A stretch of 64,000 bases of DNA from assembly GCA_964291215.2 (NCBI GenBank), contig OZ219790.1:1760001-1824000 (forward strand), in the 5' to 3' direction. Origin of the DNA: Alphaproteobacteria bacterium. GTDB lineage: Bacteria > Pseudomonadota > Alphaproteobacteria > MPNO01 > UBA830. Below are positions 5,978 through 40,673 of this stretch, piece by piece (position 1 is the stretch's first letter; the number at the start of each line of letters is the position of its first letter). The notes below the pieces were generated by a model. The model saw only the letters and a program-made list of their open reading frames with translations. It made no database searches and was not told the DNA's origin. The position numbers were made by a program, and so were the translations under genes.

Positions 5978-6850
5978 TTACGGCGCCGGCCGGCGGCAGG
6001 TCCTCGTGGACAGGACCTGCCAGAGGCCGCGCGCGAAACAGGCCGCATACCGAGTCTTCGTCAGAACGACGCGTTCTGCCAATGGATCCCGGCGACGCAG
6101 CTCCACGCCAAGCTTCCTCGCGATCGCAACAATCGTCGCGGCTTCGACCGCAAAGCGGATGTTCCTGAGCCGGCCCGGCAACCCGTCTGCCGCGTCCAGC
6201 AGGCGATCGGTCGCGTCAAGACAGCGATCAAGGACCCGCCGCAGGGCAGCCGTGGAACAGTTCCCGCCAAGCGCGTCGATATCGGCGCCGGCTTCGGATA
6301 TCCAGTCCCCGGGCAGGTAGACCCTGTCCAGGCTCCGATAGTCGTCCCCGCAGTCCTGCAGGTGGTTGATCACCTGAAGAGCATTGCAGAGCGCGTCGGA
6401 GGCCGAATATGCCGACCTGCACTCGCCATGCAGATCAATCAGATAGCGGCCAACCGGCGCCGCCGAAAGGTTGCAGTAGCCCATTAGGTCGGTCCAGTCG
6501 TCGTAGCGCAGCTTGATCGCGTCCTGCCTGAACGCGTGCGTCAGATCGACGCAGTGCTGGTGCGTTACCTGCGTCGCGGACAGGCTGCGGCGGATGTCAT
6601 GCGCCTTCCGAAAAGCCGGATCGTCGGTCAGACAGCCGCTGACGGCCGCGGCGAAACCCTCGAGCCTTTCGACCTTGTCGCCCGGCTCGAGGTCCGGATT
6701 GTCCGCGATGTCGTCGATTGCCCGCGCATAGGCATAGAACGCCTTGATGTGCGGCCGCAGACGGCCGGGAAGCAGCCACGATCCGACGGGAAAGTTCTCG
6801 TCCTTCGCGCCCTTGCCGGACGGCGTCCCGATTGCAACGGTGCCGTTCAT
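5978..6850 (-). CDS. hpnC: squalene/presqualene diphosphate synthase HpnC
   Basis: ENFPVGS, YAYARAIDDIAD, AFRQD, YCNLSAAPVGR, LQVINHLQD, DRVYLP. Confidence 0.85.
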   Translation of the reverse strand: MNGTVAIGTPSGKGAKDENFPVGSWLLPGRLRPHIKAFYAYARAIDDIADNPDLEPGDKVERLEGFAAAVSGCLTDDPAFRKAHDIRRSLSATQVTHQHCVDLTHAFRQDAIKLRYDDWTDLMGYCNLSAAPVGRYLIDLHGECRSAYSASDALCNALQVINHLQDCGDDYRSLDRVYLPGDWISEAGADIDALGGNCSTAALRRVLDRCLDATDRLLDAADGLPGRLRNIRFAVEAATIVAIARKLGVELRRRDPLAERVVLTKTRYAACFARGLWQVLSTRTCRRPAP

Positions 6851-6990
6851 CGCCAACTGCCGAAACTCCACCGAGCGGTGCGACCCACCGCCCGCAGTCT
6901 AGCGTGGCATCGGCGCCGATGACAGTCTCCGACGCCGCACGGATGATGGGCGCTGCTGGCAAAGCAGGAGAGTCTCACGCTAAATTCTGT

Positions 6991-8530: not shown

Positions 8531-9737
8531 TAGTAGTCTGGCATTATTGGATTGATAGATATAGTGATTTCAGTTTCGTCCGGGCATCCTTCGTCGTGAA
8601 ACGCCAGTCGACAGTGACATCGGCCGCATTGCGCCGTTCCACCCATGCTGCCGTCTCCCGCAGCATGGTGTCGCGGTCGGGAATGCGTCGCCGAAGGCAC
8701 TGCCGCGACAGTGCACCGATCTCGGCCATGTTGAGCCAGCTCCCGTGCTTCGGCGTGTAGCGAAACTCGAACCGCTTTCGCACCCGCCTCCTCGGGCTCG
8801 AAGGCTTCATACAGCGACTGTGCGTGTTCAGGTTGTCCAGCACGATCTTCCTGTCGGGGGAATGGTCGTCGGCAAGCTCCCGGATGAAGTGCGCCCGGTC
8901 CCGCGGCGGTCGGTGACTTTCACCGTGCGCCAGTTCTCGTTGGGCGCAAAGGCCATGAAGAGGTTGGCCGTACCGTTGCGCTCATATTCATAGTCGACCA
9001 CCTCCGGCTGACCGGGGGACGGGGGGGGGGGGGCCTTCGTCCGCTGCCGGCTGGTCTCCAGCACCTCGTCCCCGGCAAAGTCCCGCTGACAAATGTCAAG
9101 CACGTCCGTCGCCACGAACTGTGCGCTCCGGTGCGGTGGAATGCAACAGTACTGCTTCAGCCACCGCTTGATCTCTTTTTTTAGCGTCTACTTGACCGTC
9201 TCTTCCGAAATGCGCTCGACGATCTCCACCAGACGGCCGGCGAGCAGCGTCCACAGCCCTCGGGCGTGGACGAGCAGGGCGACCAGTTTCGCCTCCATCG
9301 CCCCGTCCAGCCGTTTCGGCCGACGGTTCACCTGCTCCTTGCGGCTGAGGGCGGCGTCCCTCCAGAACGCAGCGCTTGCGCAAGCGCTCGACCGTCGCCG
9401 TGCCCAGCGCAATGTCGGCATCGACAAGCGCCCCTCAGCATCAGGACCTGTGCCAGGTGGCCCCGGTGCCCGATCGCCTTCAGATCCCGGCGCTCCTGCG
9501 CCGAAAGGATCACCCGGTAGAGCTTCCTGCCCTGAGAGTTGGCCATATGCGCTGCTCCTGTCATTGCGCCGAAGACCTGCGGGTATGCCCGTTGTCCGGA
9601 CCTGCGCATGGGGCCGCTGCTGCCTGCCTGTTCGGCATCTTGCCCATGTGGATATCGGCACTGTCCGGATTCCAACGAACGCCGACACGGAAATACTACT
9701 CACCGAAAACCATCAATACAATGTCGGTGGACTACTA
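8531..9737 (-). mobile_element. IS630-family element, decayed
   Basis: Ends TAGTAGTC / GACTACTA; DYEYERNGTANLF, LDNLNTH, YTPKHGSWLNMAEI, VDWRFTTKDARTKLKSLY. Confidence 0.85.
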
Positions 9738-10246: not shown

Positions 10247-10756
10247 TCATCCGCCACCCTCGCCGAGCGAAGCTGCGATGTCGCTGATCGATCGGAGCAG
10301 GACCAGGGGCTCATCCCTGGACGGCTCGAAGCCACGCCGCTTCCAGAATTCGGCGGCCTCGCCGTCGACGGCGTTGACCATCAAAGCCCGCCCACCGATC
10401 AGCGAGGCAGCCTGCACACAGCGCTGGAGAGCATGCTTCACAAGGCCGGTGCCGATGCCCAACCCTGCCCATCCAGTGTCAGTCGCGAGTTGGCCGAGCA
10501 GCATGCAGGGGACCGGGTTGGGCGGCTGGCCTGTCCGAATCGCCCGCGGCAGGACCGATGGCACAACGGCCGTAGGCGCGAGGCCATAGTATCCGACTAC
10601 GCGCCCGGCCTCATGCACCACGAGAACAGCGGTGAACCCCTTCTGCTGATTGGAGAGGGCGCGGGTTTTAAGCCAGTGGTCAAGCGTGGGTTTGCCACAG
10701 GTGAACTCGGATACATCGTGAGCGGCGGTAAGCGGTTCGGGGCCGGTCAGTTGCAA
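10247..10756 (-). CDS. GNAT-family type II toxin (TacT/AtaT-like)
   Basis: FTCGKPTLDHWL, VVGYY, PVPCMLLGQLATD, GLGIGTGL; adjacent DUF1778 gene. Confidence 0.88.
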   Translation of the reverse strand: MQLTGPEPLTAAHDVSEFTCGKPTLDHWLKTRALSNQQKGFTAVLVVHEAGRVVGYYGLAPTAVVPSVLPRAIRTGQPPNPVPCMLLGQLATDTGWAGLGIGTGLVKHALQRCVQAASLIGGRALMVNAVDGEAAEFWKRRGFEPSRDEPLVLLRSISDIAASLGEGGG

Positions 10757-10760
10757 TGGC

Positions 10761-11060
10761 TCACCGCTTCGCCACGTAGCCGGGCTCCCATGGCGCGGGC
10801 CGCTTCAACACTTCCACCATCTCCGGAACCGGGGCGGCAGGGCGCGCCAGCACGTCCATGAACTGGGCGAAGCCTTCCGGGCTCATCCGGATCAGCCCCT
10901 GTTCCATCACGACCTCCTCGGCCGCGCGCACGGCAGCGTCGCGCACGAAGTCGGTTCGCGAGCGGCCGCGCAGGCTCGATGCGCGATCGATCATTGCGAC
11001 GTCCGCCTCGGGCAGGCGCATCGAGATCGGGTATTCCTTGCGTTCGACGGTCGTGGCCAT
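10761..11060 (-). CDS. DUF1778 ribbon-helix-helix antitoxin (TacA-like)
   Basis: PISMRLPEADVAMIDRA, RSRTDFVRDAA, APWE; immediately upstream of the GNAT toxin. Confidence 0.88.
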   Translation of the reverse strand: MATTVERKEYPISMRLPEADVAMIDRASSLRGRSRTDFVRDAAVRAAEEVVMEQGLIRMSPEGFAQFMDVLARPAAPVPEMVEVLKRPAPWEPGYVAKR

Positions 11061-11112: not shown

Positions 11113-11239
11113 CCAAGGTTATCTCAACAGTCAACGACCTTGTATGACTAGGTTTTGTCCCCGTGATGATGCAATCATCCACAGCGGCCGGGGACGGGAA
11201 AATGTGGATAACCTCGACTGTGGGAGAGCGCCCGGTCCA

Positions 11240-11450
11240 TAGTTGCAGAGAGATTCCGCTCCCCTGTGCGAGCACGCATAGGGGAGCGGGGGTGCGGGGA
11301 TCAAACGATCTCCGCGGAGGTTGCCGTTTCGGCCTTGGCCTTGCAGAGCCGCGAACGAGCTTGGTCGGCCAACCTCCCTTGGCGTCCCTTGCGTCCTGAA
11401 TGGATGCCCGAGTTTGAACCGTATCATCACAAGGCGAGGAGCAAGGGACG
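11240..11450 (+). ncRNA. candidate IS110 bridge RNA
   Basis: Three stems (11256-11289; 11316-11377; 11383-11450); the latter two enclose sequences matching the target flank and the donor ends; boundaries approximate. Confidence 0.65.
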
Positions 11451-12265
11451 ATGGTCAAGGTAGTAGCAGGGGTCAGCAAGGCCAGTCTAGACATCCGTGC
11501 GGCGGCGCGTCGTTTTGCGAACGACGCCACGAGCTGGCGGGCACGTGGCTTCGCAGCCTCGAGGTGACCCGTGTGGTGGGCGACAGGCCGCTATCACCGC
11601 AGGGTTTACCAGTGTCTTCATGACCGGGGCTTCGAGGTTGTCCTGCCCGCTGCGGGCTTCGCCGAAGCGTTGGGCCATCTGGCCAACCGCGTCGACGCTG
11701 GCCAAGATCGGCACGGTGCGATCTCGAGCCTGTAGCTCCTCAGGGTGCCTTCCTCAAGAGCCTGGAGGATCTCCTGGTGCCGCGCTTGTCGACGCCAGGC
11801 AGGTGGCAGATGAGGTGGATGGCGAGACCGTCACAAGGGCCTCGGCGGCCGATCTCGATGATTGACGGGCTGGATGCGGCGATCAAAGCGGTGATCGTCC
11901 GTGATCCCGAGCAGAGGTACGGCATCCTGACCTCGATCCCCGGTCCGGTGACCGCCGCCGCCCTTCTGGATGCCCGAACTCGGCAGCGTCGGCAGCCTTG
12001 ATCGGGGTGGCGCCGATGGCCAACGACCACGGTGCCCGGCACATCCGAGGCGGGCGCAAAAGGCCACGCGATCTCCTGTTCATGGCCGCAACCTCGGCGG
12101 CACGCTTCAACGCGGACCTGGTGTTCGAACGCCTCAAGACCGCCAGCAAGGCCCACAAGGTCGCCATTGTCGCCGTGATGCGCAACGTGCTGGCAAACAC
12201 CTTGCTGCAACAGCAGCGTTGCTGGTCGCCCGAAGCACCGGTGAGTGAGCGAAGGAGACCCCCTC

Positions 12266-12543
12266 ATGGCCCTCACCCCTGCCTAGAAACAGCGCCGTTA
12301 TCGGGAACGCCGCAAATCTCCGCCGTCCACCACGGAAAGCCCCGTCGTTCCCGTGCGCAACGCTGGCGCGATGCGGTCGCCGAGCTCGGTGCATTGCAGG
12401 AGCACTATCGGGATTGTCTCGACAGCCTCCCCGACTCCCTGCGCGACACGGCTTACGGAGAACGTCTGCAGATCATCGTCGAGGCAGACATCGAGATCCT
12501 CGAGGAGATCGAACCGCCACGCGGCTACGGACGGGACACATGA
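12266..12543 (+). pseudogene. small hypothetical passenger gene within IS110
   Basis: AAGGAG RBS, MALTPA*KQRRYRER, then a frameshift into RRSRAQRWRDAV...IEPPRGYGRD. Confidence 0.55.
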
Positions 12544-12825
12544 CACTCGGGGCCGCATTGACAACGGTAACGTTATCATGCCCGGGGACGCTGGGCGGCA
12601 AGGTGGCCGCGCTCACGTGACCAATGGACGGCAACCCGCCGCCGGAACCACAAGCTGCATGTCGTCTCGCTCGCAGGACATCGACAAGGCGGAACCCCAG
12701 ACCGCCTGTGGACAACCACGGAAAACATCACCGCGGACACCCGCAAAAACCTTGCCAGAAACCATGGATGCTCATAAGGAGAGGCGCCGAGGCGGATGAT
12801 GATCGGGCCAGCGAGAGTTTCCGAT

Positions 12826-13125
12826 AGGTTATTTCACTATGCCAAGGCACGCCAGACTACGCCGGGCCACGCTATGACACGATTTTCCGCGCCAATCGCC
12901 GCCGAATCTTCGCCTTAAAATTCCGTTGCTTATGCTTTTCTCAGGGCGAATTCTGCAAGTTATGACCTTGCGAGCCCCAGAAAACCCAGCAAAGATGACA
13001 AGAGGAGAGCACGAAGCGCTGCTCGAATTCTTGCTGCTGGACGAGCCGGAGCTGACGTTTACGCCGCACGGCAATCCCGACCCTCGCCTTCTGCGTCTGG
13101 TCGGCATTCTGGCGAGGCAGACGGC
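12826..13125 (+). mobile_element. possible ISAzo13-like end and transposase N-terminal remnant
   Basis: Lower-GC segment that truncates ParB; LLDEPEL followed after a frameshift by YAARQS weakly resembles ISAzo13 N-termini. Confidence 0.25.
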
Positions 13126-13546
13126 GCAGGACCGACTGGCCGGCGTCGGCCAGCTCCTTGAACGCGACCACCTGGTCGGCGGGGTGCATCGGCACGCGGA
13201 TGACGTTCTCGGCGAGCGAGAGTTCGGAGGGATCGGCGTCGCCAGACCTGACCTGGCAGGGAACCGGATGGTCGGCATCGATCACCTTGTCCTCGACCAG
13301 CTCCTGCATGGCCTTCAGGCGGCGGCCGCCGGCGACCACGGCATAGCGCTCGATGCAGTCCTCGGCCGGGTCATCGGCGCGGACGACGAGGTTCTCCAGC
13401 AGGCCGAGGGCGGCGATGGAGGCCTTGAGCGAAGCGTCGGCCTGCGCATCGGGCGGGGTCTTTCGGACGTTCTCGGGGGCGAGCGCGAGCCGGGCGAGCG
13501 GGATGTCCCGGATGAGCGGTTCGGCCCTGGGGGCGATGTAGTTCAT
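13126..13546 (-). pseudogene. ParB/Spo0J-family protein of ICE/plasmid type, C-terminally truncated
   Basis: IPLARLALAPENVRK, LKASIAALGLLENLVV, VVAGGRRLKA, SLAENVIRVPMHPADQ. Confidence 0.8.
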
Positions 13547-13838
13547 TCCAGTCTCCATGGAGGGTTGCACCGGCGCGGCGCAGCCGGCTCTCGCCGCCTG
13601 CCGCCACGCCCGCCCCCGACCGGCTGCTCTCCGGCTCCGGGAGGCGCAGCCCGACCGTCACCGCCGCCGGAAACGGCGGACGGTGCGGTACGGCGGTATC
13701 GGAAACGGTGGAAGAAGGCGCGCGGGCGGCGGCGGATGAGCGGTGGCCGGCGCTGGGGAAAGTGTCCCGGGTCGTGGACCGGAGAGTCGGCCGGCTATTG
13801 GACGGCCGTGATCGCGAGGGTCCGGAGTGCGCGGCCGT

Positions 13839-14120
13839 TCAGAGGCCGAGTTCGCTGTGCGAGCCGAGACGCACGAGTTCGAGATGTTCGGCGTCGGGCT
13901 TGCGGTAGATGAGGACCAAGTCGGGCCGGACGTGACAGTCGCGGTGGTCCTTCCATTGCCCGCCCAGCGCGTGGTCGCGATGGCGCGGCGGGAGCGGCCG
14001 GTCCTCCGCCAGTTCGGCCACCACATGGGCAAGTTCGGAATCGACGGTGCTGGCGAAGCGGCCCTTCTTCTCGCGCTTGTAATCCCGCTTGAAGGCCGTG
14101 GTCCGTCTAATCGTCCGCAT
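13839..14120 (-). CDS. yafQ: YafQ-family mRNA interferase toxin
   Basis: TTAFKRDYKR, DHALGGQWKDHRDCHVRPDLVLIY, LVRLGSHSEL. Confidence 0.92.
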   Translation of the reverse strand: MRTIRRTTAFKRDYKREKKGRFASTVDSELAHVVAELAEDRPLPPRHRDHALGGQWKDHRDCHVRPDLVLIYRKPDAEHLELVRLGSHSELGL

Positions 14121-17105: not shown

Positions 17106-17685
17106 AAAGCGGGGGGCGGGGGTATGCCGGGGAGACCAACCGGCTCAACCGCGAGCGTCGGGCGCGAGCGACCGCGCGGAGCTGGCCGGGATCGAGAAGA
17201 AAATCGCGTCGATGCTCGACGCCATTGAGGAGGGTGGCTACGTGCGGGGTATGTCCGACCGGCTCCGCGAGCTGGAGGCCCGCCAGGACGAGATCAACGA
17301 ACGGCTGTCAGCCGCTCCGGTCGACATCCCGGACGTTCACCCCAACATTGCCGGCGTCTACCGCCGCAAGGTGGAGCGACTCGCGGAGGCGCTGGCCGAT
17401 CCCCGCGACCAGGCGGCGGAAGCCATAAGGGGGCTGATCGAGCGGATCGTGCTGACCCCCGGCGCGAAGCATGGCGAGTTGCACGCCGCGCTCCATGGCG
17501 ACCTCGGCACCATCCTCGAATGGGCCGGGAGCGGCAGGGCGAAGGGAACGACCGACATCCTGCGAGGCAGAATGTCGGTCTCGGTGGTAGCGGGGGCTCG
17601 CAACGTCTTTTGTTATAACTTGGAATCGGCTTCGGGTTTTGCGCCCGGAAACGATGTCGAGGATGTTCATTACCTCGCCGCGTAA
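17106..17685 (+). pseudogene. large serine recombinase C-terminal fragment
   Basis: DIPDVHPNIAGVYRRKVERLAEAL, AAEAIRGLIERIVLTP, SVVAGARN; paralogous to the C-terminus of the convergent recombinase. Confidence 0.75.
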
Positions 17686-19227
17686 GGTGGCGTTGACCTC
17701 GCCGCGCTTGTCGCCGGGCTCAAGCACCACTTCGTCGACCAGCGCGCGGAACGCCTCGGCGGCCTGATCGCGCAGTTCGGGATCGGCCAGAGCCTCGCTC
17801 AACAGCGTCACCTTGGCCTTGTAGATTTCGGCGATGTTGGGGTGGATGTCCGGAACATCCTCAGGCGCCTGTTCCATGCGCGCCAGAAGTTCGGCCTTCT
17901 GGCGTTCCAGTTCCTCCATCCGATCCTTCATGGCCGGCTGATACATGCCGTCATCGATCGCTGCCATGATGCCGGCGATGCCGCGTTCGACCTTCTCCAG
18001 CGCCTTGCGGTCAAATTCCGCCTGCGCCCGGCGTTCACGGTTCTGCTGATTGAGCGCTTCTGCGTAGGCCCGGACGGCCTCCGCCACCGCATCGGCAGAA
18101 ACGAGCTTCTCGGTGAGGCCCGTCAGAATGCGGGCCTCGATCTTCTCACGATGGATCGTGTGACCATTGTCGCAGGTCCCGCGGCGATAGCGGTTGAGGC
18201 AGCCATAGCGGTCGCGGGTGATGATGCCGTAATTGCCGCAGCAGCAGCCACATTTGAGTAGGCCCGAGAACAGAAAGGCCGGACGGCGCAGCTCGTTGAC
18301 GTGCTTGGCACGATAGGCGCGCACGCCTTTGGTGACATTCTCGAACTGCCTGGCGATTTCCTCCTGCCTCTGCCGCGCCGCCTGCCATAGGTCTTCGTCC
18401 ACGATGCGCAGGTCCGGCACCTCGGTCCTGATCCATTCGGACTCCGGATTGACCCGCGAGACGCGCTTTCCCGTCGCCGGGTTCTTGATGTAGCGCAGCC
18501 GGTTCCAGACCAGCACACCGGCATAGAGCTCGTTGTTGACGATGCCGGTGCCCCGGCAGACATGGCCGCGAATGGTGGTGTCGCCCCAAGCCTTGCCATT
18601 GGGACCGGGAATACCGTCGCGGTTGAGATCGGCGGCGATAGCCTTGGGGCTCTTGCCGGCGGCGAATTCGCGAAAGATGCGGCGGACGATCTCGGCCTCG
18701 GCCTCGTTGATCTTCCGCTCGCCGCGCACCTGCTCGCCATCGCCGTTGAGACGTTTCACGACGTCATAGCCATAGCAGAGCCCGCCGCCCGCCTTTCCCT
18801 TCTCGACGCGGCCGCGCAGGCCACGGTGGGTCTTGGCGGCGAGGTCTTTCAGGAACAGGGCGTTCATCGTGCCCTTGAGACCGACATGCAGCTCGGAGAT
18901 TTCGCCCTCAGCAAGCGTCATGAGCGTCACGCCGGCAAACTTGAAATGCTTGTAGAGAATGGCGACATCGGCTTGGTCGCGGCTGATGCGGTCCAACGCC
19001 TCCGCCAGCACGACCTCGAACTTGCCCGCCTGCGCGTCCTGCAGGAGCGCCTGGATGCCCGGCCGCAGAGTGACGCTGGCGCCCGAAATAGCGGCGTCCT
19101 TGAAAGCGCCCACGACCTTCCACTTCTCCCGCGCCGCCTGGTCCCGGCAGATGCGGAACTGGTCCTCGATGGAGGAGACGCTCTGGTTGTCCGAGGAGTA
19201 GCGGGCGTATAACGCAACGCGGGTCAT
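17308..19227 (-). CDS. large serine recombinase/integrase
   Basis: YARYSS catalytic Ser, EALDRISRD, recombinase domain YGY..., zinc ribbon LFSGLLKCGCC; the last ~90 aa are read-through beyond the att-like junction. Confidence 0.92.
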   Translation of the reverse strand: MTRVALYARYSSDNQSVSSIEDQFRICRDQAAREKWKVVGAFKDAAISGASVTLRPGIQALLQDAQAGKFEVVLAEALDRISRDQADVAILYKHFKFAGVTLMTLAEGEISELHVGLKGTMNALFLKDLAAKTHRGLRGRVEKGKAGGGLCYGYDVVKRLNGDGEQVRGERKINEAEAEIVRRIFREFAAGKSPKAIAADLNRDGIPGPNGKAWGDTTIRGHVCRGTGIVNNELYAGVLVWNRLRYIKNPATGKRVSRVNPESEWIRTEVPDLRIVDEDLWQAARQRQEEIARQFENVTKGVRAYRAKHVNELRRPAFLFSGLLKCGCCCGNYGIITRDRYGCLNRYRRGTCDNGHTIHREKIEARILTGLTEKLVSADAVAEAVRAYAEALNQQNRERRAQAEFDRKALEKVERGIAGIMAAIDDGMYQPAMKDRMEELERQKAELLARMEQAPEDVPDIHPNIAEIYKAKVTLLSEALADPELRDQAAEAFRALVDEVVLEPGDKRGEVNATLRGEVMNILDIVSGRKTRSRFQVITKDVASPRYHRDRHSASQDVGRSLRPAAPGPFEDGAEVAMERGVQLAMLRAGGQHDPLDQPPYGFRRLVAGIGQRLRESLHLAAVDAGNVGVNVRDVDRSG

Positions 19228-37502: not shown

Positions 37503-37749
37503 CTTATATGACCAGGTTTTGTCCCCTTGATGATGAAATCATCCACAGCGGTTGGGGGCGGGAAAATGTGGACAACCCCGACTGTGGGAGAGCTATGGTT
37601 GCAGAGAGATTCCGCTCCCCTGAGCGAACACGCACAGGGGATCAAACGATCTCCGCGAAGGTTGCCGTTTCGACCTTGACAGAGCCGCGTCCGAGTTTGG
37701 CAACCTCCCTTGACGTCCCTCGCTGGATGCCTGGGTTTGAACCCGTATC
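37503..37749 (+). repeat. second copy of the IS110 non-coding left end (bridge-RNA-like), cut by IS66
   Basis: Colinear with 11139-11425, with substitutions and small deletions. Confidence 0.8.
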
Positions 37750-40673
37750 GTAACTGCTCACCCCCTGGTTCCGGCTTGATGTCGGGGTAGAGTAACGAAC
37801 GGGTTTTCGTGGAGATTTGACACTGCAGGCCGATTCGCTTAGTGGTGGTAATCGAGAACGATGGGGACCGCCAGTGGGCTACATTGGATCGAAGGCGACG
37901 AGCGGGCTGTGCCAGCTGCTTCCGGGGCTCCAGCCTCCGCATGATCTGTATGTGGAAACGCATCCGGGAGGCGGCGCGCTGATGAAGCGCAAGGCGGAGT
38001 ACCGGAAAATGCCGCCGGGCGAGCGCCAGGCGATGCTCGCGGCGAGGCCGGGTGATGGCGACGGGCGGCGCGCGAGGAGTTCGAAGCGGCCAGGACCGCG
38101 GCGCTGCCGGCAAGGTGGCGGAAGAGGCCGTGATCCGCGTCTTCGTCATCCTGCTCGGCATCCTCATCGTCGTCCTTCCGGAGAAGACCACGCACGAGCC
38201 GGAACTCCGGTCTGCCGCCGTCACAGACGGACAAGAGCGTGCCGGGAGCAACGGCCCGAAGCCGAACCGGCAGATGGGCGACAACCTGCGCAAGACCATC
38301 GTCGAGAAGACGGTCGCGGCCTGCGGCGCCGACGGCCCCGTCGAGCGCCGCACGACATCGTGTTCGAGGTCGCGCCGCGTCGACGCCGAGGAATGCCCGA
38401 AGTGCAAGGCCCGGTTCCCCGACAACATCCCGTGCAGTACGGCATCCAGGCCCTCGTCATCAACCTGCTGGTCGCCCAGATGCTGTCCCTGCGCCGTCGC
38501 GCTCGTGCAGGCGATATCAAGCTCTCCGAGGCCTCGGCCATGCTTTCACGATGCGTCATGGGAGGAGGCCGCCGTGGCGCACCTCCTGCAACGCCCGATG
38601 TCGACGATTTCGGATCAACGGCAAGTGGCTCCATGTCGTCGGGACGTGCAAGTTCCCGCACCGCAAGCAAGAGATCGGCCCGTGCTACAAGGGCGTCCTG
38701 GGCCTCGTACATGGCAGTGTAGCCACCAGCGGCAGCCACCTGCTGCGCGAACTGACCTTCGTCGTCGAGGCTACCGCGCGACTGATGAAGAGCCTGCTCC
38801 GCGAGGTCTGCCACAAGATCAACAAGAGCGCATCCAGGACCCTGAACGACGCCGTGCGCTACCGCACCATCAGGGCGCCAGGGAACTGCCCGACATCCCG
38901 ACGAAAGGAAAACGCATCGCAAACGCGCACAACCTGCACGAACGTCTCGTGAAACACGAAAACCTGCGCTTCACAGACGACCATCGCGGTAGGGAACCGG
39001 GTTACCCCCCGCACAGAACCGGACGTGCGCTGTTCGCATCCGGCTCCTCCCTCAGGTCTTGACGACAAGGCGCTGGTTTGGCCACGGATGCTGGCTTTGG
39101 GCCAGTGGGCAAGGGTATCTATGTCCCCGGTGAAGTCCTTTTGGGAGCGTCGCCGAAGGGCACGCAGCTGTTTGCATTGGTGTATGAACTTCTGCAGGCT
39201 GCTTCCCGGGACGGCGTAGTAGCAGCCGTTGATGACTCACCACTTGGCCGTTTCGTGCCGGTTATCGTGCCACCGCTTGCGCAAGGCCTCCTTGATCCGC
39301 CGCAGGGTGCCCGTTTGCGACCGACCCTGAACCTGCCTTTCCTCGTCTGTTCGCAGAAGTGCGTCATGCCGAGGAAGTCGAACGTCTTGTCCACGCTTCC
39401 GGCGGTTCGCTCTGGCAAACCGACCGAACTCGATGATTTTCCGGGTGCAGTTCAAGTGGGCCAGTCTCTCCCCAAGGTCCCAGCGTCGCCCAGATGCTGA
39501 AAGCCGCACACGAAGTCGTCCGCATAATGATCGTGTCCCGCTTGCGCCAGTGGTTCTGGAACCAGTCGCACGTAGTGCAGGTTCGCAAGGCGCCGCCCCT
39601 TGCGGTGTTCCCTTGCCAGTCGGTCCCTTCCATGACGCCGGCGTCACTTGATGATCAGACCCCCCGATCCGTTTCCCGAGCATCGCAACCAGATGGTCGC
39701 GGTTGTCGAAGGGGCGTCAACGATCCAGTTGACCTTCCGCCGTTCCACCGTGACGGCGCATGATGCGCCCCGGCCGGAACCGAGGAACTCCGTTTCGCGG
39801 CACCAGAATCACACCGCCCGCTGAAGAATCTTGTCCGAGGCAAGTTGCCCCTCCTTGGGAATGTAGACCCTGGAGGCGCCCGCCCCTGTGCACACGGGCG
39901 TGCAGGCAGTTCCACCCCGTACGTTTGCCACACAACGCCCCGCCGCCGCATCCTTCCTCAAGGAATGGAACGCAGAACATCACGTGGTGGAGTAAAGACG
40001 CTCTTCCGGGTTCCTCTTCGCTACCTGCCGCCTGTGACCCCCGCTTCTGCGCGCGGCGCGGGCCAACCGCATTGCCCTTCCCTCCAGCAACTCCGCAGGC
40101 TCCGGAGAGCCCTTGTTCGCCGCCTTCAGCGGTACTATGGCCGAATCTGACTTCTCGTTCATCATCGGCTTACGGAATTTCCTCTGCGGCCCCTCCACGA
40201 CAGAGGGGCAAGACCTCCCAGGTCCCTGCTTCGGCCATGGTTCTCGGACCCCGCGGAGCCCCCCTCACCAACGCGGCTCGTTGCCTTCAGCCACGACCTC
40301 GGCGCTCCGGTTTCAAAGCATCTCGTGGCTCAATAGCCTGCCGCTCCCCAACGCTTCGCCTGGCGACGCATGGTTCACGGAGAAATTAGCCTCTCTCGGG
40401 ACTTGCACCCGGCCACATTCCACCAGTTTGCCTGGCGCACCCGACGTCAGCTTCACCAACAATGCCGGAGAACAGAAGATCAGGATGGCAAAGCTCAAGG
40501 TGTCCGGATGCTTCCGCTCCACGCAAAAGCATGGTGCCAAGCTACCTCACCTCCATGGCCGCACTCGGCTACAACCCACTCGTCGCCACCCAGATCGCCC
40601 TCGACGGAAAAGCCGCAGACATCATCAACGAGCACTACGACCAATCAGAACCCAACTAGGGGTGAGTAGATAC
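37750..40673 (+). mobile_element. IS66-family element, copy 3, interrupted by a group II intron
   Basis: GTAACTGCTCACCCC at 37750, GGGGTGAGTAGATAC ending at 40673; no TSD. Confidence 0.88.
38983..40440 (-). mobile_element. group II intron with decayed reverse transcriptase
   Basis: 5' GTGCG at 40440; domain V GAGCCGGATGCG..CGCACGTCCGGTTC and domain VI ending CCCTACCGCGAT; RT fragments GTPQG, YADDF, LELHPE, FDFLGMTH; removal restores GACGACCCCGACGTC as in copy 2. Confidence 0.9.

Follow-up and report, generated by a model that had tools for sequence, protein, structure and literature searches.

Results

The element, its ends and its surroundings

The window that we analysed, 64,000 nt of a 6.15-Mb alphaproteobacterial genome with 64% GC, whose 16S is 88.7% identical to the closest plasmid-borne operons, contains an IS110-family element of 1634 bp that runs from CT core to CT core (positions 11139-12772; this and all features of the element given below are on the forward strand), as compared with 1968 bp in an intact relative, L036. 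The element is inserted in single-copy DNA, with a tacA-tacT operon on one side and a truncated ParB-like gene on the other. The operon (10247-11060, reverse strand) encodes an intact TacT-type GNAT toxin and TacA antitoxin, and the element is positioned about 80 bp upstream of tacA. The ParB-like gene (12941-13570), a gene that we take to encode a RelE/YafQ-like toxin (13839-14120) and an intact large serine recombinase gene (17308-19227), all on the reverse strand, mark an integrative element. Farther away on the reverse strand are group II intron domains (38983-40405; RF00029, RF02005) and what is presumably a squalene/phytoene synthase-like gene (5978-6871).

The left end (11139-11148) consists of the core CT and the right-donor arm TGTATGA, overlapped by a -10-like TATGAC (11143-11148); the right end (12752-12772) carries a -35-like TTGCCA (12752-12757), the left-donor arm ATGGATG (12764-12770) and the second CT. 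The flanks are ACGAC on the left (11134-11138), in the single-copy DNA upstream of the operon, and CATAAG on the right (12773-12778). Searching the host genome returned 66 left-end and 70 right-end matches, a few of them partial or spurious, of which 60 pair up; the family thus numbers about 70 copies, all decayed. The matches converge on CT-T[AG]TATGA at the left and CATGGATG-CT at the right, and empty sites with a single CT were recovered within the genome for 9 of the 15 junction types tested, upholding the two CT dinucleotides that a preliminary description of this DNA had proposed as boundaries (11139 and 12772). The motifs named in that description also lie where it had placed them (CT at 11139 and 12771, CGGCCT at 11330, GAG at 11357, TGGATGC at 11401, ACAAG at 11429 and ATG at 11451).

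Insertion is scarless, with one CT in the empty sites and no terminal inverted repeat among those listed. An assignment to the IS1111 group is not borne out: the subterminal repeat, CAT/ATG in 11/11 relatives, is just 3 bp rather than long, and the RNA model presented below matches the left end only. For the window copy itself, two contigs of run X3 continue from the left flank to position 11140 and then into CATGAGG, the 30-mer being 26/30 identical to 12773-12802, so that the empty allele reads CATGAG on the right. In runs X1 and X2 the left flank is followed by CATCAG and then by other sequence. Both filled junctions of the window copy occur in run contigs too, and 25 family genomes held no useful homologue of its left flank.

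A second, truncated family copy in the window (37503-37749, forward strand) ends inside the donor loop, where it is interrupted by another high-copy element; its guide pair is TTTCGACCT / CGTCCGAG, and its left flank, TCGAC, fits the left guide. At G000:C2:3385611 and other copies the left and right flanks belong to different target families, which suggests that copies have rearranged with one another.

A dead recombinase with intact relatives in other genomes

The recombinase gene (11451-12239) is a pseudogene. An alignment to intact L036 shows 30 deletions in the window copy, 23 of them inside this gene; 12 shift the reading frame, and four of the five catalytic codons (D9, E51, D93 and S232) are affected, in agreement with the earlier view that this recombinase copy is dead. 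The same holds for the family, as each of the 57 aligned copies (the 60 paired copies, leaving out one mis-pair and two copies that hold large inserts) carries at least six frameshifting deletions. The window remnant scores under the cut-off for PF02371, and a 99-aa stretch of it is 49% identical to an annotated IS110.

With a naturally occurring 100-aa piece of a sister copy as the query, the search for protein relatives matched 806 proteins, the best of them 85-88% identical and 315 aa long. D9, E51, D93, D96 and S232 are invariant in 36 relatives and correspond to D11, E60, D102, D105 and S241, the catalytic residues reported for IS621 (PMC11208158), and the intact relative P0002 scores 202.6 bits against NF033542 (cut-off 140). 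Judged by their sequence, the intact relatives are 315-aa DEDD/Ser recombinases of the IS110 family. The catalytic residues, the ends and the two-loop RNA of the relatives agree with the earlier assignment to the IS621-type IS110 elements with a CT core.

The search for an intact copy that had been proposed succeeded among relatives (e.g., L036) but not at home: we found no intact recombinase of the same subfamily in the genome's own assembly. Its two intact IS110 genes (about 425 aa) belong to another subfamily; these unrelated copies, at G000:C1:480787-482064 and C1:883-885 kb (L013, L012), are without short-deletion decay. A DNA search of plasmids gave no match to the element; among the genomes of 60 relatives, a DNA search found a related element in one only (G001), and the RNA model was positive in 3/77 further genomes from the same order, with weak scores in two. 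In another genome, L058, L059, L061, L062, L067, L068 and L079 are inserted at a variety of guide-matching sites; L058, L067 and L069 were inspected and share one 7-nt frameshifting deletion, and the remaining copies show the same shortened match.

Downstream of the recombinase lies a broken passenger gene (12266-12543), which is 96 aa long in intact relatives and was found in 34/159 loci, all of the close group (e.g., L043:2977-3267). It has 725 homologue clusters; we detected no Pfam or NCBIfam match and no homologue in plasmids, and a word-indexed search with the broken fragment itself retrieved no homologue. In one genome (G334, loci L205-L224), 8/12 passenger homologues are situated just 3' of a PF02371 match, mostly of another IS110 type. 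The passenger thus recurs behind two IS110 types, and because its N-terminal helix is basic our guess is a regulatory role. As the gene lies inside the right end, that end is long, at 498-705 nt in close relatives, and the layout is not the long-left/short-right one.

A conserved two-loop RNA and a predicted junction promoter

The DNA between the left end and the recombinase start codon is predicted to encode a bridge RNA composed of two 5' hairpins (11256-11315; individually 11256-11289 and 11294-11315), a target-binding loop (11316-11377) and a donor-binding loop (11383-11450). The fold of 11240-11455 has z = -4.8, with none of 200 shuffles equally good; it recovers the three stems of the preliminary description (11256-11289, 11316-11377 and the 11383/11441 pairing) and adds the hairpin at 11294-11315 as a fourth. 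Across 22 relatives, the most distant at 52% protein identity, the stems contain 63 double changes versus 20 in the shuffled control, a test inflated by the kinship of these relatives. The target- and donor-loop stems are 95% paired in this set, as compared with at most 55% pairing and at most 16 double changes when slid. An RNA model built without the window matches 11314-11453 at 113.6 bits, with six unpaired-partner positions there; the check that had been suggested thus yielded a conserved two-loop structure with covarying stems. The model locates the left end only, and the RNA is in the left end despite the unusual layout.

The target-loop stem is itself damaged. As compared with intact relatives, a 6-nt deletion in the 5' strand of its basal stem (near 11322/11323 in the window copy) is present in 57/57 paired copies, and among the genome's own copies only the truncated C1:1320149 has kept the stem. 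In 32/57 copies, of clades B and C, a 5-nt deletion in the 3' strand (reference position 231) removes the resulting bulge and restores a perfect 10-bp stem, which could reflect either selection or hairpin-templated repair.

Donor guides generally agree with the element ends across the family. The donor loop carries the left donor guide ATGGATGCC (11400-11408), the right donor guide TCAT-C-ACAAG (11424-11433), which by inspection forms nine base pairs with one bulge, and the handshake GC (11434-11435). All four copies with CTTGT ends have the pairing ACAAG guide, and CTTGT occurs in 0/33 copies with other guides; three ACAAG copies carry CTTAT ends, and in total 4/40 own copies mismatch between donor guide and end. 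In distant relatives, CTCGT ends accompany -CGAG or -CGGG donor guides. The earlier reading of TGGATGC and ACAAG as donor guides that match the element ends is borne out, since the guides both match and covary with the ends across the family. The handshake base is G opposite a target C in 37/38 own copies and A with a target T in L040, L053 and C1:1320149, three covarying lineages; L050 and L065 (A with target C) are the exceptions among relatives.

Joining the two ends creates TTGCCA-17-TATGAC, the sigma70-like promoter motif that had been pointed out. TTG, the 17-nt spacer and TATGA are conserved in 11/11 relatives, consistent with a putative junction promoter; a -10 element without the last T is described as usual in Alphaproteobacteria (PMC8407463). 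A consensus promoter scan reported no junction motif, because the motif arises only on joining the ends. Joined ends did not occur in the run contigs examined, an absence that carries no evidential weight.

Target guides track the insertion sites across the family

The 60 target loops of the genome resolve into 17 guide pairs, with 11 left and 9 right variants plus one further right variant. Guides and flanks agreed well beyond expectation: 164 left matches versus 124 expected in the 37 copies whose left junction is intact and whose guide could be parsed, 248 right matches versus 197 in 50 copies and, for unique pairs, 88 versus 70 on the left (n = 21) and 112 versus 91 on the right (n = 24; p < 10−4 throughout, permutation), p-values that overstate independence because the copies are related and mosaic. 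In relatives, taking one row per guide, the corresponding values were 38 versus 21 (left) and 45 versus 22 (right; n = 9 each, 27 loci). Loop bases therefore covary with insertion-site flanks both inside the genome and across relatives, as the suggested check had anticipated. The signal occupies positions -5 to -1 and +1 to +5, is weak at +6 and is absent at -7/-6. Poor fits to their own flanks are seen in copies c56, c38 and C1+988118.

Most of the target sites lie in other repeats. Counting 19 of the 21 right-flank clusters against the genome, four are present at 1-2 copies, and most flanks recur 9-229 times. The hosts that could be named, ISAs1 (weakly), ISNCY and a DruA-like/Transposase_29 element, are transposase genes; no family name was obtained for host repeats A, C, F and H, and the sequence adjoining L036 we take to be IS66-like. 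In host A, the guide match is perfect in 11/11 filled sites and in 1/13 empty ones, a pattern that conversion of filled to empty hosts, with co-conversion of the flank, could in part mimic. Host D, which differs from host A's guide at +5, is almost unused, with 25/31 empty sites identical to the filled one, and 17/34 exact sites in host F were left empty; a site match is thus insufficient for insertion.

An agreement between guides and flanks could also arise by shared ancestry, if insertions were copied together with their host repeats and the guide variants entered the genome separately, so that no retargeting took place within it. Three flank families do hold 43/70 right ends, and the three clades, 5-10% apart, could be separate invasions. 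Shared ancestry accounts for common flanks but not for base-for-base complementarity, and 8/13 distinct right flanks (9 counting one further copy) are exactly identical to a guide arm; moreover, filled and empty hosts are interspersed in the host trees, and guides differ within clade C. We consider this explanation quite improbable, although some variants may have entered separately. The sequences instead suggest that target guides diversified within the genome while the donor stayed common.

The guides of the window copy misfit its own site

The left target guide of the window copy is TTTCGGCCT (11327-11335), in which just the 5 nt preceding the core follow the flanks; the right target guide CGAACGAG, together with the handshake dinucleotide CT at 11360-11361, occupies 11352-11361 and predicts CT-CGTTCG. 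The two guides predict (T)CGGC-CT-CGTTCG, and the actual site reads ACGAC-CT-CATAAG. The loops had been said to match the element's own target, a claim that fails over the full guides. CGGCCT (11330) is present, but it fits the left flank and core ACGAC-CT at just 3/5 positions plus one G:T wobble, and the right side fits at 3/6. The GAG at 11357 consists of the invariant core and one base, the actual right guide being the 8 nt of 11352-11359. The guide code is therefore legible from the family, but not from the window copy itself.

Just one further loop of the genome, at C2:280038, carries TTTCGGCCT; its right guide is CTCATGAG, which fits the X3 empty allele CT-CATGAG at 6/6 positions. Two further copies sit in CT-CATGAA sites, marking CATGA as a regular target. 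The flank that would fit the window copy's present guide, CGTTCA, belongs to C2:1023769, the copy to which its right end is nearest (3% versus at least 5%), and its other segments are nearest to other copies. In line with such mosaicism, four-gamete conflicts grow with distance, from 4/25 under 20 nt to 367/771 (~45%) over 300 nt.

The site of the window copy was likely chosen by a sibling's guide and not by the present one, although the empty allele of X3 stems from a related region of ~90% identity, and X1 and X2 read CATCAG. We give an even chance to a CATGA-guided insertion whose right guide was later replaced by gene conversion, a route favoured by the fit of the C2:280038 guide, the copies in CT-CATGAA sites, the shifts in nearest relative and the four-gamete conflicts. 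Guidance in trans by a sibling's RNA is a close rival, if somewhat less probable, since IS621 complexes appear to use loops from different RNA molecules. It is quite unlikely that the window copy has carried its present guide throughout and inserted off target via the left arm and core: the left flank matches at 3/5 plus the wobble, and one matching half-site is reported to suffice for IS621 in vitro (bioRxiv 2026.08.31.748434), but the empty allele fits a guide of the same genome at 6/6 on the right, and two more copies occupy CT-CATGAA sites.

An excess of 5-7-nt indels in high-copy repeats

Among 1701 distinct clean indels between repeat copies of this genome, 1138 are of 5-7 nt and only 10 of 4 nt, with microhomology of at least 2 nt at 597 indels versus 225 expected. 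Repeats with ten or more other copies make up about a quarter of the genome (387/1500 sampled 400-nt tiles). The density of 5-7-nt indels is ~7 per kb at ten or more copies, 4 at 3-9 and 1 at 1-2, a trend confounded by selection because low-copy repeats include functional paralogues. In the IS110 copies these indels are deletions, 29-53 per copy, and they cross clades more than substitutions do (polymorphic in both clades, 12/30 versus 12/77; Fst 0.32 versus 0.68). Examples within the window are found at 8544-8843 and 11451-12239.

Such an extreme density might be taken for an assembly artefact that conceals intact copies, a reading to which we give almost no credence. The same kind of indel, of 6-8 nt, appears in contigs of three independent runs, marker completeness is 99.3%, and long open frames persist in the neighbouring genes, in MutS and in the two-copy IS110. 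MutS is intact; loops of at least five bases generally escape mismatch repair. Ku was not found in the genome, and no 4-mer reached 2-fold at the deletion sites. A literature search, with most subscription papers outside its scope, found no account of a deletion spectrum that peaks at 5-7 nt and drops away at 4 nt.

Discussion

We put a probability of about 0.78 on the following overall reading: a decayed bridge-recombinase element of the IS110 group, in ~70 copies, whose guides diversified within the genome, with the window copy at a site guided by a sibling and its right guide acquired later by conversion. This reading builds on the ends, the single-CT empty sites, the covarying RNA, the tracking of flanks by guides, the decay of the recombinase gene and the match between the empty allele and the guide at C2:280038, all of which were observed. 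By analogy with IS621, an intact ancestor would have circularised at its CT cores, and the junction promoter would have made a bridge RNA whose donor loop held ATGGATG-CT-T[AG]TATGA and whose target loop read ~5+2+5 bases. Changes in the target loop would then have sent lineages to new sites, mostly other high-copy repeats, with the donor unchanged. Short-tract recombination among copies probably shuffled guides and spread the 5-7-nt deletions, until finally no reading frame was left.

Dying copies might instead have been mobilised in trans by another copy's recombinase and target loop, even after their own gene had died; another copy would supply both, and body and site therefore need not agree. 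One donor sequence is common to all variants, the IS621 structure suggests two separate RNA molecules as the sources of the target and donor loops (PMC11208158), and the IS621 bridge RNA is reported to act in trans (PMC11208160). Consistent with this, copies c0, c6, c13 and c51 occupy four distinct guide-like sites, yet 4-10 substitutions separate them over 1.4 kb and they have 30-38 gaps in common (against an imperfect union reference). On the other side, the assembly has no intact recombinase of the subfamily, each of the 57 copies has at least six frameshifting deletions, and the evident conversion would homogenise dead copies too. We regard such mobilisation as possible but fairly unlikely, and retain in-genome diversification followed by conversion as the preferred history.

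A more speculative proposal, which we hold to be doubtful, is that the dozens of dead copies, with one donor in common and many target loops, form an interchangeable guide library directing the family to other transposons, combined with a deletion ratchet, made of 5-7-nt loops that escape mismatch repair and of short conversion tracts, that inactivates every high-copy repeat. If true, the ratchet would be a bacterial, copy-number-dependent counterpart of repeat-induced mutation, and the 5-7-nt deletion signature, if it depends on copy number, a new route of transposon extinction.

The bridge recombinase class of IS621 was described in 2024 (Durrant, PMC11208160; Hiraizumi, PMC11208158), and concordance of guides and targets across orthologues was already reported there (PMC11208160); because the class is known, one more readable bridge RNA adds little. 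What this genome offers is a single donor combined with at least 9 right and 11 left guide variants, and target repeats that occur both filled and empty next to each other, a natural in-genome record from which guide register (~5+2+5), tolerance of mismatches and retargeting may be read. Our literature search, with most subscription papers and preprint supplements outside its scope, found no guide radiation within one genome. The intact relatives L036, L043, L046 and L116 are candidates for tests of a recombinase of 315 aa whose right guide is longer, and the passenger behind two IS110 types may regulate them.

As a member of the IS110 group, the element probably worked like IS621, with which, as far as the published accounts that we drew on describe it, it shares the DEDD and catalytic serine residues (in intact relatives), the CT core and the junction promoter motif, a left-end RNA with a 5' hairpin, target loop, donor loop, bulged right donor guide and handshake bases, and a conserved donor loop beside a variable target loop. 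Unlike IS621, its left end is ~317 nt long with two 5' hairpins, its effective target is ~5+2+5/6 rather than 7+2+2, its right end is long and holds a passenger, and it has many guides per genome, targets that are mostly repeats and only dead copies. It resembles the cargo-bearing IS110 elements outlined by Hu (2026, bioRxiv 2026.08.14.744561) in being longer than minimal, in carrying an extra gene inside its ends and in the suggestion of a trans-acting RNA; that cargo is described as captured plasmid DNA, whereas the passenger here is invariably a single 96-aa gene, retained at 34 related loci and present in G334 behind another IS110 type as well. Like ISPpu9 (PMC12288879), it is an IS110 member within repeats, with additional small-RNA copies elsewhere in the genome; on the brief description of ISPpu9 used for this comparison, that element targets REP sequences, whereas the targets here are IS genes, and guide variants are not mentioned for it. 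The short deletions recall the pseudogenes of Burkholderia leaf symbionts (PMC6054270), where they are likewise often at microhomologies and without Ku/LigD; those symbionts are reported to have power-law sizes and an excess of 3n lengths, with IS repeats masked, whereas here the deletions lie in repeats, are near zero at 4 nt and peak at 5-7 nt.
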